Shown: positions 22,986-29,051 of the stretch, one piece after another
Numbering within the stretch: position 1 is the first letter of the stretch
How the letters are laid out: every line of letters begins with the position of its first letter
From: a virus
Lineage: Duplodnaviria; Caudoviricetes
Direction: 5' to 3' (one strand)
Virus record (IMG/VR): IMGVR_UViG_3300037424_000957
Location: 1 to 43,205 of that record
Length of the DNA stretch: 43,205 nt
The notes under the pieces: model-generated
The model's input: the letters and a program-made list of their open reading frames with translations, nothing else
Told to the model about the DNA's origin: nothing
The model's database searches: none
Made by a program: the position numbers and the translations under genes

Positions 22986-24285
22986 ATGGAACTTTCAGTT
23001 CAAGAAAACATCAATTACAGCGCTCAAATAGTACAAATTAAAAATATTATACCATTAGAAAAATGTGATAATATCGTGGGGACATCTATAAATGGTTGCC
23101 ATGTAATTATCTCTAAAGATGTTAAAATAGGTGATATTGGTATTTTCTTCCCGGTAGAAAGTAAATTGTCCCCGGATTATTTAAGAGGAAATAATTTATA
23201 CCGGGATAAAACTTTAAATCTTGATCAAACAAAATCTAGCTTTTTCGAATTAAATGGCAGAATTCGGGCAATTAAACTCCGCGGAAATAAGAGCGAGGGT
23301 TTATTTATGCCGACCAGTAGTTTATATGCAATTCCTAACTTAATTCTTGATGAAGATATAAGAGATTTTATAGGACAATCTTTTGATCACATAAACGGTG
23401 TTAAAGTATGTGAAAAATATACCATACCTATAAGAACTCAGGGGCAGCACAACAAACAAGGTAAAAAAGCAAAAGTTTCTAAAATTGTTCCCGATCAATT
23501 TCGCTTCCACGCAGATACCGAACAATTAGGAAGAAATTTAGACAAATTTGATTTAGATACGCCTATTCAAATCTCAGTAAAGGTCCATGGTACATCAGCA
23601 ATCGCGAGCCATATCCTTTGTAATAAAAAGCTTAACATATTTCAAAAATTATTACTTAAATCCGGACTGAATTTACAAACCACTTACTATGATTATATTC
23701 ACGCATCCCGGAAAGTTATAAAAAATGATGATATAAATAAAACTCAGCATTATTATAACGAGGACATTTGGAAGAAAGGTGCCGACTCCTTAAAAGAATT
23801 TTTAGAAAAAGGCATGACTATTTATTTTGAAATAGTGGGTTATCTTAGTGATAATAGCTTTGTCCAGAAGGGCTATGATTATAATTGTGTACCAGGAAAA
23901 TTTGATATTTAGCGCAGACCAGCTTCAAATGTGGTGTAAACAAAGAGTATTAAAGCCGGTTATTGAATTATACAAAGGAACAATAGAAGAATTATTTGAA
24001 CTCTTTTATGAAGAGAAAAACGAAGATGATTATTGTGTTATTCATGAAGACTGGAGAGAATATTTTATTCAATTTTTACGAGATGAATTTAATATTGAAA
24101 GAGACTGCGATATTTGCAAAAATGCCGTGCCTTACGAGGGAATTGTTATCCGAAAATTAGATACCCTTGACTTTGAAGCTTACAAACTAAAGAGCTTTAA
24201 ATTTTTGCAACGAGAAACTGAAGAACTTGATAAAGGACAAGAAAATATCGAAGATAGTCAGGAGACAAAAAATGAACAAATATAA
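22986..24285 (+). pseudogene. Rnl2/DRB0094-type RNA ligase split by a frameshift at ~23910
   Basis: N-terminal OB-like domain, motif I KVHGTS and III FEIVG in frame 1; motif IV EGIVIR and V AYKLKS in the +1 frame; junction TTTGATATTTAGCGCA. Confidence 0.75.
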
Positions 24286-25531
24286 CTTAAACAAGAATGG
24301 GGTTATTAATAGTCTTGGATATGACAATAAAATAAAAGGTTATATAAGAAAAAATTTAATCTTTTTAACTGTATCCGGATCTCATGCATACGGTACAAAC
24401 ACCCCCACCTCAGATATGGATATAAGAGGTATATTTATTGGGGAGAAAAGAAACATTCTCGGTAATGATCATATAGAACAATTTGAAAATACGACTAATG
24501 ATACAGTTATATATGAACTATCAAAAGCAATAAATCTTATCGCAGAAAATAATCCTAATATGGCAGAATTAATGTTTTGTGATGAAGAAGATATTATTTT
24601 TGCAACAGAAGAATACTGGAATATCAGAAAAGATAATAAAAAATTCTTAGCCTCAATAGCAAGATTTAAATATTCCGGATATGCAATGTCTCAACTTAAA
24701 AGAGTCAAAGGACATTCTAAATGGTTATCAAGAGAATTAGTCGGTGAATTCAAAAACAAACCGGAAATGATTGATTATTGCAGGTTTATAAATTCTGAAA
24801 GTGGTTACACTACAAAAGAAAAATTTGTTATCGAATCAAAAAGTAAAGTGTTTTTTCTTACACACGAAACCAATACAATATTTAAAGTATGGAGAATAGG
24901 GGGTCTACAAAATGGGAAAGGTTGGTTTGATAACGATAATTGCACTTTCTATTTTAAAGAGGATATAAGTTTAAAAGCAGAATTCCAGGGACTATTATTT
25001 TTTGCTAAAGATGAATTTAATCAAGCTTTAGACCAATATAACAAATGGAAGAATTGGAAAGAGAATCGAAATGAAACTCGGCATGAATTAGAAAATAATT
25101 TTAACTATGACACGAAACATGCAATGCATTTAGTAAGGCTCCTCCGAATGGGAAAAGAAATCCTTATCGAAGGGAAAGTTAATATTAAAAGACCTGACGC
25201 CACTGAACTTCTTGACATAAGAAACGGAAAATGGTCTTATGACAAACTTCTTGAATATGCGGAAAATATGGATAAAGTGATATTAGAAAACGCATATAAA
25301 AATACATATTTACCTCATAGTGTCGATAAAGAATTCGTTAATAATATTCTTATAAATACTTATGAATCTTTTTGGAAAAAATCTGACTATCCGGATTATA
25401 CTAAATGTACAGATGAACGAAAAGAGGTCTATTGGAATATATGCAAATGCATCAAAAAGAATGATATAATGATTTGCGGATTAAATAATAAGCCATGCAT
25501 AGCGTGGAAGGAGTATAAGTATGGACAATAG
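24272..25531 (+). CDS. Pol-beta-superfamily nucleotidyltransferase (RlaP/YcgL-like)
   Basis: VSGSHAYGTNTPTSDMDIRG, NNPN, YDTKHAMHLVRLL; GGAG RBS before ATG 24272. Confidence 0.88.
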   Translation: MNKYNLNKNGVINSLGYDNKIKGYIRKNLIFLTVSGSHAYGTNTPTSDMDIRGIFIGEKRNILGNDHIEQFENTTNDTVIYELSKAINLIAENNPNMAELMFCDEEDIIFATEEYWNIRKDNKKFLASIARFKYSGYAMSQLKRVKGHSKWLSRELVGEFKNKPEMIDYCRFINSESGYTTKEKFVIESKSKVFFLTHETNTIFKVWRIGGLQNGKGWFDNDNCTFYFKEDISLKAEFQGLLFFAKDEFNQALDQYNKWKNWKENRNETRHELENNFNYDTKHAMHLVRLLRMGKEILIEGKVNIKRPDATELLDIRNGKWSYDKLLEYAENMDKVILENAYKNTYLPHSVDKEFVNNILINTYESFWKKSDYPDYTKCTDERKEVYWNICKCIKKNDIMICGLNNKPCIAWKEYKYGQ

Positions 25532-26465
25532 AAAAGTTACATTAACAATCGGAATAATTGCATCAGGGAAAAGTACCTGGAGTAAACAATATGTAAAGGA
25601 CCACAAAGATACTTATAGACTATCCCGTGACGATTTAAGATTTACAACAACTAGCTATAACTTCAATAAAACCAATGAAAAGATAGTAGACACTCTTTAC
25701 CGGCAGCAAATTGAGTATCTATTAAAGAACACAACTTTTAATATTATTTTAGATGAGCAAAATCTTAATGTCGAAAGAAGAGAAAAATTCATAGAGTGGA
25801 TATGGTCCGTATCTCCGGGCATAATCATTGAATACAAATATTTTCCTATAACTCTTGACCTGGCTATACAAAGAGATAAGCAAAGAGAATTTAAAATTGG
25901 TGAAAGAGTTATAAGGGATACATGGGAAAAGAATAAAGAACTTTTAGAGCAGATGCTTATAGATTATCCTATAAACAACACATCAGAACCCAAACCGGAA
26001 AGAGATTGCTATGATTTTACTTATGATCCAAATAAAATAAACGCTTTTTGTGTGGATTGTGATGGAACTCTTTCTCATAAACACAAAGATCGCGGGATCT
26101 TTGATTTAACTACCTCTATTAAAGATATTCCTATTATTCCTGTTATAACCATAGTGCAAGCTCTTTATAAGGCAGGATATCCCATAATCATATGTTCCGG
26201 GAGAGAGGAAAAGGATAGACAAGTGACTGAAGAATTCTTTAAGTTACATTCTGTGCTATTTACTGATCTTTTTATGAGGACTACCGGAGATTACAGAAAA
26301 GACTCTATAGTAAAAGAAGAAATTTATAGGAGTAAAATAGAACCTTATTACAATGTAATGGGGTGGATTGATGATAGGATCCAGGTACTTAATCATTTTC
26401 AAACTAAGCTCGGAATTTTCACAGTAGACGTTAGGCAGGACGCAAGAGGGAAAAATAATTTTTAA
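25521..26465 (+). CDS. pseT: polynucleotide 5'-kinase/3'-phosphatase (T4 PseT-like)
   Basis: GIIASGKST P-loop, SRDDLR, HAD DCDGT, SGR, DDR. Confidence 0.88.
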   Translation: MDNRKVTLTIGIIASGKSTWSKQYVKDHKDTYRLSRDDLRFTTTSYNFNKTNEKIVDTLYRQQIEYLLKNTTFNIILDEQNLNVERREKFIEWIWSVSPGIIIEYKYFPITLDLAIQRDKQREFKIGERVIRDTWEKNKELLEQMLIDYPINNTSEPKPERDCYDFTYDPNKINAFCVDCDGTLSHKHKDRGIFDLTTSIKDIPIIPVITIVQALYKAGYPIIICSGREEKDRQVTEEFFKLHSVLFTDLFMRTTGDYRKDSIVKEEIYRSKIEPYYNVMGWIDDRIQVLNHFQTKLGIFTVDVRQDARGKNNF

Positions 26466-26531: not shown

Positions 26532-26559
26532 TTGACTTACAATGGCTTCATGTTAATAT
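26532..26559 (+). promoter_or_regulatory. sigma70-type promoter
   Basis: TTGACT-16nt-TAATAT with extended -10 TG. Confidence 0.5.
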
Positions 26560-26735
26560 TGGAGTAGAGTGATTAAACTCTTGGTGTAAATTGGTTTTTA
26601 CCAACAAAGGGTGCCCACTTTGAAAAAATCACCCCTTTTTTAAATTTAAAAACTCCGGGCACCCTTTTCCGAAAACAAATCGCATAAGCGATTTTAATAT
26701 AGATTAAAATTTAATACAGGAGGCAAGTTTAAAAG

Positions 26736-26801
26736 ATGGCCAAAAAAGCGGCAACGCCGAAGAAAGGCACAAAGAAGCCAGCACCCAAGAAGAGTTGCTA
26801 A
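26736..26801 (+). CDS. 21-aa Lys/Ala/Pro-rich basic peptide MAKKAATPKKGTKKPAPKKSC
   Basis: AGGAGG at 26718-26723; flanked by a structured leader and a 12-bp-closed hairpin. Confidence 0.6.
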   Translation: MAKKAATPKKGTKKPAPKKSC

Positions 26802-26822: not shown

Positions 26823-26895
26823 ACATCCCTCTCTGAAATTTTGACCGGCATATAGCAGGTCATAGCAATAGGATAAGGAAGAGAGGGATGTTTTT
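26823..26895 (+). terminator. long hairpin followed by a T run (terminator-like or small RNA)
   Basis: ACATCCCTCTCT/AGAGAGGGATGT 12-bp stem with inner TGACC/GGTCA stem, then TTTT. Confidence 0.5.
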
Positions 26896-26924: not shown

Positions 26925-27707
26925 TCGCTTCTTATCAGTGAAGGAAAATAAAAAGATAGGAGGTTCAACATGCGGTTCCTAGACCGAAGCCGGTAGCATA
27001 AGGAAAAGAACCTGTAAAACATAACACTATTAGATTAAATTTTATAATTATTAAATTTAAAGATTTACCGGACTTGGATTAAAGTTGGACTCCGATACAT
27101 GTCGGATGGCAGTGGCCTAAGACCGCCGGGATAGACCGGCAATTTATAACATTTTGTTTGCATTGTAACATTATATATGTTACAACTAGAAAGTAAGATC
27201 GCGGATTAGACTAGAAGCTCAGTCAGAAGCCTCATACGCTTCCTACAAGTGTGCAATTCACTTATCCGCTAATAAAATCTGACCGTATCCGTATTCGCGG
27301 CAACAGTAGGAAGTGAGCAGAACTTGACTGCTATTCAAGCCTTCCTGAATATTCGATTAAGATATACGAGAAGAACAAGCCTCAAAAGAGGGAAACTACT
27401 CTTCCTTAAAGATTTCTGAAAGATAATTCTAAAACGGTATTTGGTCCCGGGTGAATCCGAAATGGTTCCGGGAATAGATTTTCTACCGGGAGAGCGGGTC
27501 GCTTGCGTCCCAGTGTACACCTCTCCCGGTCTGGTATTATCCCACTGTTCATTTCGGTGACAGGTGCAACTGAAAAGTTTGCTTATCCTGCGATGCCTCT
27601 TAACAATGCACACTTCGGAGGATGTACGCAGAAAGGGCTAACCGAGTAAGCAGACGGAAAACTCAAGCGCAAGGTAATCCGACAACCGGTGGAAGTCCGG
27701 GCTGGTA
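26925..27707 (+). ncRNA. large structured ncRNA candidate (GOLLD/ROOL-like) enclosing or flanking tRNA-Met
   Basis: ORF-free and GC-richer; stems ACCGGGAGAG/CTCTCCCGGT, AGGAAG/CTTCCT, TCCCGG/CCGGGA, TTTGCTTA/TAAGCAGA, CTGCG/CGCAG, a UUCG loop, terminal CCGG-TGGAAGT-CCGG. Confidence 0.6.
27200..27271 (+). tRNA. tRNA-Met(CAT), no encoded CCA
   Basis: CGCGGAT/ATCCGCT acceptor, GACT/AGTC D stem, GAAGC-CTCATAC-GCTTC anticodon arm, AAGTG-TGCAATT-CACTT T arm. Confidence 0.85.
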
Positions 27708-27724
27708 TTATAAAAACAAATTAT

Positions 27725-28234
27725 ATGAATGAAAAACAAATCAAAAAATGTTCTGTAGAAGGCTGCGACAAAAAATATTATGCTAAAGGATATTGCCATT
27801 CTCATTATTATAGCAGAGTATTTATAGATTGCGGAGCTCTATACAAATGCAAGATTGAAGGTTGCAATAACAGTATTCATTCTAAAAGTATATATTGTTC
27901 TCAACATAAACGGAGAATAGATAACAAACTATCAACAGATTTAACCATAGATTTAAGAACGATCAATATGGTGGGTAATAAAAATCACAGATGGAATGGC
28001 GGGAACTCACAATATAAAAATCATTCCAAAATGAAAAGGAATAGAAAGATCCGTTTCGAACAGGTTGATTATATATGCGAAAAATGTGGGAACGATCAAG
28101 TCGCAAAAATATATCATAAAGACAGAGATAATACGAATCATGAGATAGATAATTTAATGGCAGTGTGCCAGGGTTGTTTCTGGGACATACACATGGAAGC
28201 AAGAAGATTAGGAATTAAATTAAAAATGAGGTAA
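27725..28234 (+). CDS. HNH endonuclease with N-terminal CxxxxC...CxxH repeats
   Basis: CSVEGC...YCHSHY, CKIEGC...YCSQH, RWNGG, CEKC...HKDRDNTNHEIDNL..VC..C. Confidence 0.8.
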   Translation: MNEKQIKKCSVEGCDKKYYAKGYCHSHYYSRVFIDCGALYKCKIEGCNNSIHSKSIYCSQHKRRIDNKLSTDLTIDLRTINMVGNKNHRWNGGNSQYKNHSKMKRNRKIRFEQVDYICEKCGNDQVAKIYHKDRDNTNHEIDNLMAVCQGCFWDIHMEARRLGIKLKMR

Positions 28235-28238
28235 AAAT

Positions 28239-29051
28239 ATGAAACGATTAAAAGTATTAAATACAGATTTAAGAAGTCCATTTCAAGATTTCCAATTTGA
28301 ATTAAATAAAAAATATCATTGTGATAATTTTGACGATAATCCAAATAATGATTGTTCGAATGGATTTTATGCAACGAAAATAGATGGATTACCATATTCA
28401 TTTAGACCAGACAGAAAAGTTTTCGAATGTGAAGTGTCAGGGAAAAAAGTTGAAATAAATCAATATAAATGTCGATACGAATATTTTGAACTTATCAAAG
28501 AAATTCCATTAAATATAATTAAACAAAAAGCAAAACATGTAGAAAATAAACTAGGATATAAATTATCTGAAATTTTATTCCCTATAAATCCATTTACTTT
28601 TGAACCTAAAAATTTATCAGAAAAAAAATTAATTAAATTGATAAAAGATTGGATTTCCGTGTGGGCTTCCGTGAGGGATTCCGTGAGGGATTCCGTGGGG
28701 GCTTCCGTGAGGGATTCCGTGTGGGCTTCCGTGAGGGATTCCGTGGGGACTTCCGTGGGGGCTTCCGTGTGGGCTTCCGTGTGGGCTTCCGTGTGGGATT
28801 CCGTGTGGGCTTCCGTGAGGGATTCCGTGAGGACTTCCGTGTGGGATTCCGTGGGGGCTTATATATCCTCGTTATTCCCTAATATTAAACAATGGCAATA
28901 TATCGACCATAAAAAAGAGAGTAACCCCTTTCAACCGGCAATTGATTTATGGAAATTCGGATATATAACATCTTTTGATGGTACTTCATATAGATTACAT
29001 GCTTATAAAGATGCAAGAATAGTATTAACTATAGATAAAAAAGATTTATAA
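28239..29051 (+). CDS. phage protein with 17 tetrapeptide SV(W/R/G)(A/D/T) repeats
   Basis: ORF track; GAGG RBS. Confidence 0.85.
   Translation: MKRLKVLNTDLRSPFQDFQFELNKKYHCDNFDDNPNNDCSNGFYATKIDGLPYSFRPDRKVFECEVSGKKVEINQYKCRYEYFELIKEIPLNIIKQKAKHVENKLGYKLSEILFPINPFTFEPKNLSEKKLIKLIKDWISVWASVRDSVRDSVGASVRDSVWASVRDSVGTSVGASVWASVWASVWDSVWASVRDSVRTSVWDSVGAYISSLFPNIKQWQYIDHKKESNPFQPAIDLWKFGYITSFDGTSYRLHAYKDARIVLTIDKKDL
28656..28859 (+). repeat. 17 x 12-bp coding tandem repeat TCCGTG-DGG-(GCT/GAT/ACT)
   Basis: direct reading. Confidence 0.95.

Follow-up and report, generated by a model that had tools for sequence, protein, structure and literature searches.

The closest described counterparts of the locus reported here are the RNA antitoxins of the AbiF type III toxin-antitoxin systems. 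Reviews report that abiF RNA acts by blocking the active site of the HEPN protein, that conservation is higher in the upstream RNA than in the toxin genes (PMC13064643), and that AbiF processes its own RNA (PMC12737573). The C. difficile RNA RCd22, as described in the accessible part of its report, contains two abiF motifs, binds AbiF, neutralizes it in cis as well as in trans, and represses abiF in cis (10.1101/2025.04.15.648962). An abiF RNA has also been reported in phage S-CREM1, its role being left open in the available parts of both papers (PMC9964418; PMC12197685), and phage PhiTE is reported, in the accessible account, to escape ToxIN by expressing antitoxin mimics, or pseudo-ToxI (PMC3475682). 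Two other sources, PMC12283969 and PMC10690425, add nothing on orphan abiF RNAs in their available parts. Further points of comparison, again from partial sources, are the large phage RNA GOLLD, one transcript of 400 to 800 nt that forms cages and whose linker can contain tRNAs (PMC12286853), and the phage tRNAs and ligases that counter anticodon nucleases (PMC10264068).

The window is an entire linear virus record of 43,205 bases (~31% GC, 38% complete), which encodes a DnaE polymerase, a DnaB helicase, a primase, inteins, and HNH genes; coordinates below are on the + strand unless stated otherwise. Contigs from other sequencing runs agree with its sequence wherever they cover it, the parts left uncovered in low-depth runs being uninformative, and contigs of one run (X1) break at 27509 to 27531, which points to a branching assembly graph in that sample. 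Positions 26925 to 27707 had been described in a first-pass annotation as one candidate large noncoding RNA of ~780 nt, dense in stems, wrapped around a tRNA, and either GOLLD-like or of a new class. Every sequence string named there is in place on a direct sequence check, and the stretch indeed lacks a credible ORF: three internal ORFs have codon scores of -0.23, -0.58, and -0.42, while two real genes score +0.22 and +0.24. The density in stems is borne out in part. There are 9 perfect helices of at least 8 bp, against 3.9 ± 1.9 in shuffled sequences, and 5 special-loop hairpins with stems of at least 4 bp, against 0.8 (p 0.001, the loop classes having been picked after looking), but the fold of the whole stretch is modest (z -2.0, with 1 of 20 shuffles equally good) and that of the 3' part (27275 to 27712, 438 nt) is no better than chance (z -0.05).

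We ran Rfam on the whole window and three subregions up to an E value of 10, together with single-model searches. The context is of the GOLLD type, a viral genome with a tRNA nearby, and the ORF-free length is comparable to that of GOLLD (RF02032) and ROOL (RF03087), which also adjoin tRNAs in phages according to the available parts of PMC12286853 and PMC5737381. Unlike those RNAs, the window gives no match at E ≤ 10 to the ROOL model or to the GOLLD model with its conserved 3' domain, its parts occur independently, and no conserved large domain was found. The ROOL model scored 231 bits on a positive control (locus L187), and the RNase P bacterial A model (RF00010), also without a match in the window, exceeded its cutoff in 8 of 14 controls; model sensitivity is thereby shown for these two, but not for GOLLD, whose controls matched only below the cutoff, or for manA (RF01745), which gave no match in the window. 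The stretch is a member of neither GOLLD nor ROOL, and the GOLLD-like assignment falls with this result. HEARO, group I and II introns, and tmRNA had no Rfam match at E ≤ 10 except for a 9.4-bit group-II-D1D4-4 fragment (E 7.8), ARAGORN found no tmRNA, and twister-sister (RF02681) matched only a T-loop-like hairpin (10.1 bits, E 1.3). A tmRNA, a permuted tRNA, a theta ribozyme, an RNase P fragment, and a ribozyme had also been considered by eye and were dropped, there being no model match. When the region and its parts were compared by BLASTN with annotated phages and plasmids, only chance-level matches resulted. What Rfam returned in place of GOLLD, ROOL, HEARO, RNase P, or a group I intron was a subthreshold match to abiF, which the first-pass annotation had overlooked.

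This best match, to RF03085, covers 27587 to 27622 and scores 23.5 bits against a gathering threshold of 37, with an E value of 0.0016 for the genome alone and of 0.21 and 0.042 over all families; two clear viral copies elsewhere (L171 and L180) also stay under the threshold, at 32 to 33 bits. The motif occupies 27585 to 27623, with its core at 27595 to 27609, inside a 156-nt GC-rich block (27547 to 27702), and occurs once, 323 nt downstream of the tRNA. It keeps the core, with an 11-nt loop and a 3-bp inner stem, a U-A closing pair, and the common linker, and it is identical at 25 of 25 nucleotides to a copy in another virus (G021). The same 15-nt core lies 161 to 162 nt upstream of Abi_2 matches at two loci (L292 and L293), which ties the window variant to true AbiF loci. 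On these sequence features, the window likely carries a member of the known abiF motif. Its outer stem forms 5 of 6 pairs (7 of 8) around a G-G mismatch, a level that random 18-mers of the region equal in 10% of cases. In the fold of lowest energy, the first four bases of the loop are buried; exposing them takes 4.1 kcal/mol, a cost that 93 of 109 viral copies stay below. The nested stems reported earlier are present (TTTGCTTA at 27578 with TAAGCAGA at 27647, 8 pairs including one G-U, and CTGCG at 27588 with CGCAG at 27627), and they reach into the abiF loop as a competing fold. No Abi_2 domain (PF07751) was found in the assembled genome, where the downstream gene encodes an HNH protein; at 38% completeness, a toxin gene may be missing from the assembly.

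Viral copies of abiF are common, linked to tRNAs, and nearly always free of the toxin. A scan for the 15-nt core returned 120 loci, and counts from 11 of 64 parts give an estimated ~700 viral stretches, compared with ~140 for a control 15-mer that is GC-rich and mostly coding; the core pattern was taken from the window, and the records include related phages rather than independent lineages. At least 5 of the 6 outer pairs form in 99 of 110 distinct copies and all 6 in 80 of them; with shuffled partners the shares are 46% and 11%. When 93 stem-bearing copies were aligned with the window (A1; 6 of the 99 were omitted as coding-looking or truncated), the core-closing pair, which was not used for selection, formed in 73 of 91 distinct rows and showed 38 double changes. 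Seventy of 80 copies lie outside ORFs. A same-strand tRNA is found within 300 nt of 23 of 80 copies (controls, 2 of 80; opposite strand, 1 of 80), and a tRNA starts 33 to 41 nt after the core start at 10 of 120 viral loci. None of the 105 ORFs downstream of viral copies (67 of 80 loci had one) encodes Abi_2. When the whole records of 99 of the 120 loci were searched, Abi_2 exceeded the cutoff in 2 of 99, the two in which the core precedes the Abi_2 match by 161 to 162 nt, and in none of 23 near-complete ones, where there was one weak interrupted match; since Abi_2 was the sole profile used, remote HEPN partners could be missed. The genes downstream of viral copies are mutually unrelated, and some encode capsid, terminase, or lysin. 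At individual loci, an ORF with a thiol-activated cytolysin domain follows the core by 45 nt (L131, 1546 to 3015, + strand), and a ROOL RNA lies ~300 nt downstream of the core in a tRNA array (L187, 503 to 1196, - strand). The motif sits within larger hairpin-rich stretches in L136, L150, L162, L167, and L227; in the four of these that were scanned (not L162), only tRNAs reach the Rfam gathering level.

Set against the described systems, the window motif shares an inner stem of 3 bp, a loop of 11 nt, and the linker with the RF03085, AbiFr, and RCd22 antitoxins, along with a putative outer stem. The differences are that no Abi_2 is found in the assembly, that there is one copy where RCd22 has two, that the score stays below the Rfam cutoff, and that the motif sits inside a longer GC-rich block in which another fold competes. 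Like pseudo-ToxI in the accessible account (PMC3475682), it is a phage-borne look-alike of a type III antitoxin without the toxin, and its action is proposed by that analogy; unlike pseudo-ToxI, it would concern the HEPN protein AbiF rather than ToxN, it shows no repeat expansion, and it apparently occurs in hundreds of viral records. In the S-CREM1 abiF/manA/wcaG cluster, too, the abiF RNA of a phage is accompanied by other small RNAs (PMC9964418), but the window gives no manA match, and the accessible parts of the S-CREM1 papers (PMC9964418, PMC12197685) contain no mention of a decoy. A literature search that covered neither the original AbiF/Cas13 paper nor the supplement of PMC5737381, where it may have been stated, did not find the decoy reading.

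Base composition divides the stretch into GC-rich blocks (54, 47, 47, 58, and 51%) separated by AT-rich spacers (10, 21, and 32%). At its 5' end, a predicted hairpin (26925 to 26996), with no homolog among the loci compared, covers an AGGAGG site at 26958 ahead of an 8-codon ORF (26970 to 26996). A spacer of 10% GC (27016 to 27064) follows, with a promoter-like site at 27021 to 27048 (TATAAT at 27043; 10 of 12 in a consensus scan). The block at 27065 to 27142 (54% GC) is separated from the tRNA (47%) by a 21% GC spacer that contains an AT-rich 7-bp hairpin (27164 to 27184). Downstream of the tRNA, GC content is 47% and then 32% up to 27440, 58% at 27441 to 27531, 51% at 27547 to 27702, and 12% thereafter. 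Between the last two blocks lies TGGTATTAT (27532 to 27540), an extended -10-like sequence that is repeated at 27703 and, on the - strand, at 1762 after the genome's other tRNA; it is a candidate extended -10 promoter or processing signal. In this genome it was seen directly 3' of structured RNAs on three occasions, and L136 has one further case (reverse complement, 1564).

The first of these GC-rich blocks, which we call RNA B (27065 to 27142), is a 78-nt sequence with a homolog in one other virus record (G001, locus L272), identical at 71 of 78 positions (E 1.3e-25), with sharp edges and unlike flanks. That virus is unrelated, the locus has no tRNA, and RNA B is the only match of a 1,265-nt intergenic query in the 65-kb record. 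Both copies are predicted to adopt an identical four-hairpin fold (z -2.5 and -3.7). Of their seven differences, five fall on loop bases and the other two make up a double change from A-U to C-G in the first hairpin; this compensatory event is a single one between two sequences, and 265 of 500 shuffles reach as much. In long context the first hairpin has a pairing probability of 0.1 to 0.2. Neither copy matches Rfam, GTDB holds no match for RNA B or for the tRNA, and a single metagenome scan returned the same contig only. RNA B patterns hit eight viral stretches, the known homolog and seven that look coding, and thus no third copy. A two-sequence model (R1) recovered only the last hairpin in other RNA-rich phage stretches (L001, L055, L171) and gave two weak matches in 50 records, one of them in a coding-looking stretch; the last hairpin does recur in RNA-rich stretches of other viruses. 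Six supplementary files of Fremin et al. (PMC10690425) gave no hit for abiF or RNA B strings. On sequence, RNA B is a candidate for a small uncatalogued family present in two viruses. Two observations lie to the side of this: a hairpin with a GAWAGA/GAGAGA loop, in many cases after UGAC, recurs in phage noncoding stretches (L001, L055, L102, L162, L171), with no Rfam match where scanned, and the minus strand of L272 ~250 nt upstream of the RNA B homolog also looks noncoding and hairpin-rich, with no Rfam match.

The tRNA (27199/27200 to 27272) is called by ARAGORN as an atypical tRNA-Met with a CAU anticodon (cloverleaf z -2.7), and Rfam does not call it even at E ≤ 10. Bacterial initiator tRNAs have a 1×72 mismatch, G2:C71, C3:G70, a purine11:pyrimidine24 pair, A73, and three consecutive G-C pairs in the anticodon stem. 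The window tRNA has a C1×U72 mismatch, G2:C71, C3:G70, A11:U24, and A73, with no encoded CCA; its anticodon stem is without the three G-C pairs (A, G, and C at positions 29 to 31), its D loop is without GG, and its T loop reads UGCAAUU. By sequence, its acceptor and D stem are of the initiator type, and what it lacks is the anticodon-stem G-C triplet, GG in the D loop, and a T loop of normal sequence. A contig from another study (run X6) contains the tRNA with 81 of 82 nucleotides identical and unlike flanks.

The proposal of one ~780-nt RNA is therefore not supported, since the 5' part, the tRNA, and the abiF hairpin are each found elsewhere without the rest. The alternation of GC-rich blocks and AT-rich spacers, together with the independent recurrence of these three blocks, makes it quite probable that the stretch is modular, whatever abiF does. 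For the fuller reading, a counter-defense island of separately made small RNAs (tRNA, 78-nt RNA, and abiF) in which the orphan abiF would act by analogy as a decoy antitoxin, we see an even chance. Transcription would start from the promoter-like sites at 27021 to 27048 and 27532, and host processing would cut the transcript and release the small RNA modules. The abiF hairpin with its 11-nt loop would then bind host AbiF and prevent this RNase from aborting infection, the Pnk, ligase, and RlaP enzymes encoded upstream could repair cut RNA in a purpose shared with the island, and the tRNA may serve as a spare or nuclease-resistant Met tRNA. The weakest role assigned is that of RNA B, which at a guess might be a folded scaffold or decoy ending in a hairpin common in phage RNA islands. 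The main result against a decoy is the predicted opening cost of 4.1 kcal/mol, which could reflect decay or a switch, or could be overcome by processing or protein binding. More tentatively still, and at somewhat less than even odds, toxin-free abiF RNAs may be a widespread phage anti-defense against AbiF/Abi_2 HEPN nucleases, the proposed Cas13 ancestors, carried in tRNA arrays by hundreds of viruses as a near-universal antitoxin that tRNA processing would release; here it would be a switchable decoy in an island with an initiator-like tRNA and a new 78-nt family, beside repair enzymes. If true, the decoy would supply a testable job for a phage RNA motif seen without explanation in S-CREM1, extend the mimicry of RNA antitoxins beyond one phage (PhiTE) to hundreds of viral records, and predict which phages escape AbiF-type abortive infection.

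The two mutually exclusive abiF folds, 4.1 kcal/mol apart, would also suit a hairpin that acts in cis within the modular island, where bound AbiF or another host factor would switch transcript folding, termination, or processing upstream of the HNH gene. The cis repression by RCd22 (10.1101/2025.04.15.648962) and the processing by AbiF of its own RNA (PMC12737573), both as given in the accessible texts, point the same way, as do the tRNAs that start 33 to 41 nt after the core and the copies that precede capsid, terminase, or lysin genes. Against this, the genes downstream of viral copies are unrelated to one another, and the promoter-like site at 27703 would uncouple the HNH gene; we consider the cis switch unlikely, though the best of the alternatives.

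Slightly less likely is that 27273 to 27702 (~430 nt) forms one large uncatalogued RNA into which abiF is inserted as a domain and which an 8-bp helix may connect to the 5' block. The segment is continuously ORF-poor and raised in GC, and its 3 special-loop hairpins exceed the 0.5 of shuffled sequences (p 0.018); the GOLLD linker offers a precedent for included tRNAs in the available part of PMC12286853. Its first block (27273 to 27440) folds no better than shuffles (z -0.15 and +0.82 for the 47% and 32% GC parts), and the next (27441 to 27531) contains two GC-rich hairpins, including the 10-bp stem 27485/27521 reported earlier, which is present with a z of -3.4; neither block has a homolog in the comparisons run. 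A T-loop-like hairpin (27686 to 27700), also correctly reported, closes the GC-rich block, and a few other viruses have the identical 15-mer in stretches that lack ORFs and are rich in hairpins, for example L055 near tRNAs. With abiF and this one hairpin excepted, ~390 nt of 27273 to 27702 are without a homolog. Combined patterns for the 3' block gave no true match (one had no hits, the 31 hits of another were abiF followed by ordinary tRNAs, and a third had 1 hit by chance), and three short BLAST matches to unassigned blocks were rejected as chance. The segment-wide folding z of -0.05, the internal 32% GC spacer and -10-like site, and the independent travel of RNA B and the tRNA likewise argue against a single large RNA.

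The strings of the long-range pair once suggested to span the tRNA, CCGGACTT at 27068 with AAGTCCGG at 27693, are present, and such an end-to-end 8-bp match has a p of ~0.02, but the helix has a pairing probability of 0.30 or 0.01 depending on the ends folded, and the complement to AAGTCCGG is lost in the only homolog of the 5' block. The double-changed A of RNA B lies in the CCGGACTT strand and is compensated locally, so the only comparative evidence, a single event, favors local pairing. The suggestion of a new class may hold for one block, RNA B, which is absent from Rfam, but not for the stretch as one RNA, and a larger new RNA would have to be restricted to 27273 to 27702. Separately, a ~45-nt conserved element that ends in the T-loop-like hairpin is common to L002, L009, L056, L089, L107, and L111, some of which adjoin tRNAs.

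The subthreshold score, the outer-stem mismatch, and the buried loop, in an incomplete genome and next to a mobile HNH gene, could instead mark the abiF copy as a decayed passenger, or as what remains of a lost abiF gene, that has no function at present, selection then acting on the tRNA and RNA B alone. Its core, closing pair, and linker are intact, with 25 of 25 nucleotides shared with another viral copy, and paired stems are kept in hundreds of toxin-free viral copies, so that we regard decay as improbable. A boxA-like site recruiting NusB/NusE for antitermination through phage tRNA arrays, suggested by the strong same-strand tRNA link and by the resemblance of the loop to the consensus GYTCTTTAANA given in the available part of 10.1101/091223, is the least probable reading, as the ungapped match is 8 of 11 with the critical C4 mismatched, the window motif is 323 nt downstream of the tRNA, and the motif is enclosed in a stem and has a demonstrated protein partner, AbiF, in the accessible reports (10.1101/2025.04.15.648962; PMC13064643).

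Returning to the proposed island of small RNAs, its genomic neighborhood includes RNA-repair genes. An RNA ligase is encoded in two overlapping frames (22986 to 23912 and 23848 to 24285; phrog_968, E 3.6e-52, profile positions 3 to 254 of 398), with a frame break near 23850 to 23910. The second ORF has no family match in profile searches (phrog and NCBIfam included), and from motif-like residues we take it to be the ligase C terminus. An RlaP-family nucleotidyltransferase (24227 to 25531; PF10127, E 7e-19) and a polynucleotide kinase-phosphatase, Pnk (25521 to 26465; PF25109, PF13671, phrog_505), follow; a Pnk-based search found no relatives among viral contigs, and the best protein relative is 48% identical. 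As with T4-type repair by Pnk and RNA ligase and with phage tRNAs that escape anticodon nucleases (PMC10264068), Pnk and ligase genes here lie near an altered tRNA. Unlike the T4-type case, the ligase belongs to a different family and runs in two frames.

The earlier placement of the stretch directly after an RNA-repair operon is right in that Pnk lies upstream, but loose, as a promoter-like site, a small ORF, and an inverted repeat intervene after the end of Pnk at 26465. The promoter-like site (26532 to 26559) has a TG extension and scores 9 of 12 in a consensus scan, which does not in itself show function. The leader at 26600 to 26720 folds strongly (z ~-5), with an 8-bp GGGTGCCC/GGGCACCC stem ahead of the small ORF. 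This 21-codon ORF (26736 to 26801), which sits between the promoter-like site and the repeat, is rich in Lys, Ala, and Pro, has a strong ribosome-binding site (AGGAGG at 26718), and has no NCBIfam match; its basic composition is presumably histone H1-like. The 12-bp perfect inverted repeat (26823 to 26891) has a 45-nt loop followed by a T run and is terminator-like (local z ~-4.8). Far from the stretch, a second ORF-poor, GC-richer segment of ~300 nt (1845 to 2150, - strand; z -0.4) lies upstream of a tRNA-like gene (1765 to 1840) and has no Rfam match at the gathering level. On the downstream side, the HNH endonuclease gene (27725 to 28234; phrog_5351, E 2.7e-15) is followed by a 270-amino-acid ORF in which tandem 12-nt repeats (28649 to 28800) encode units of the SVRD/SVWA type.
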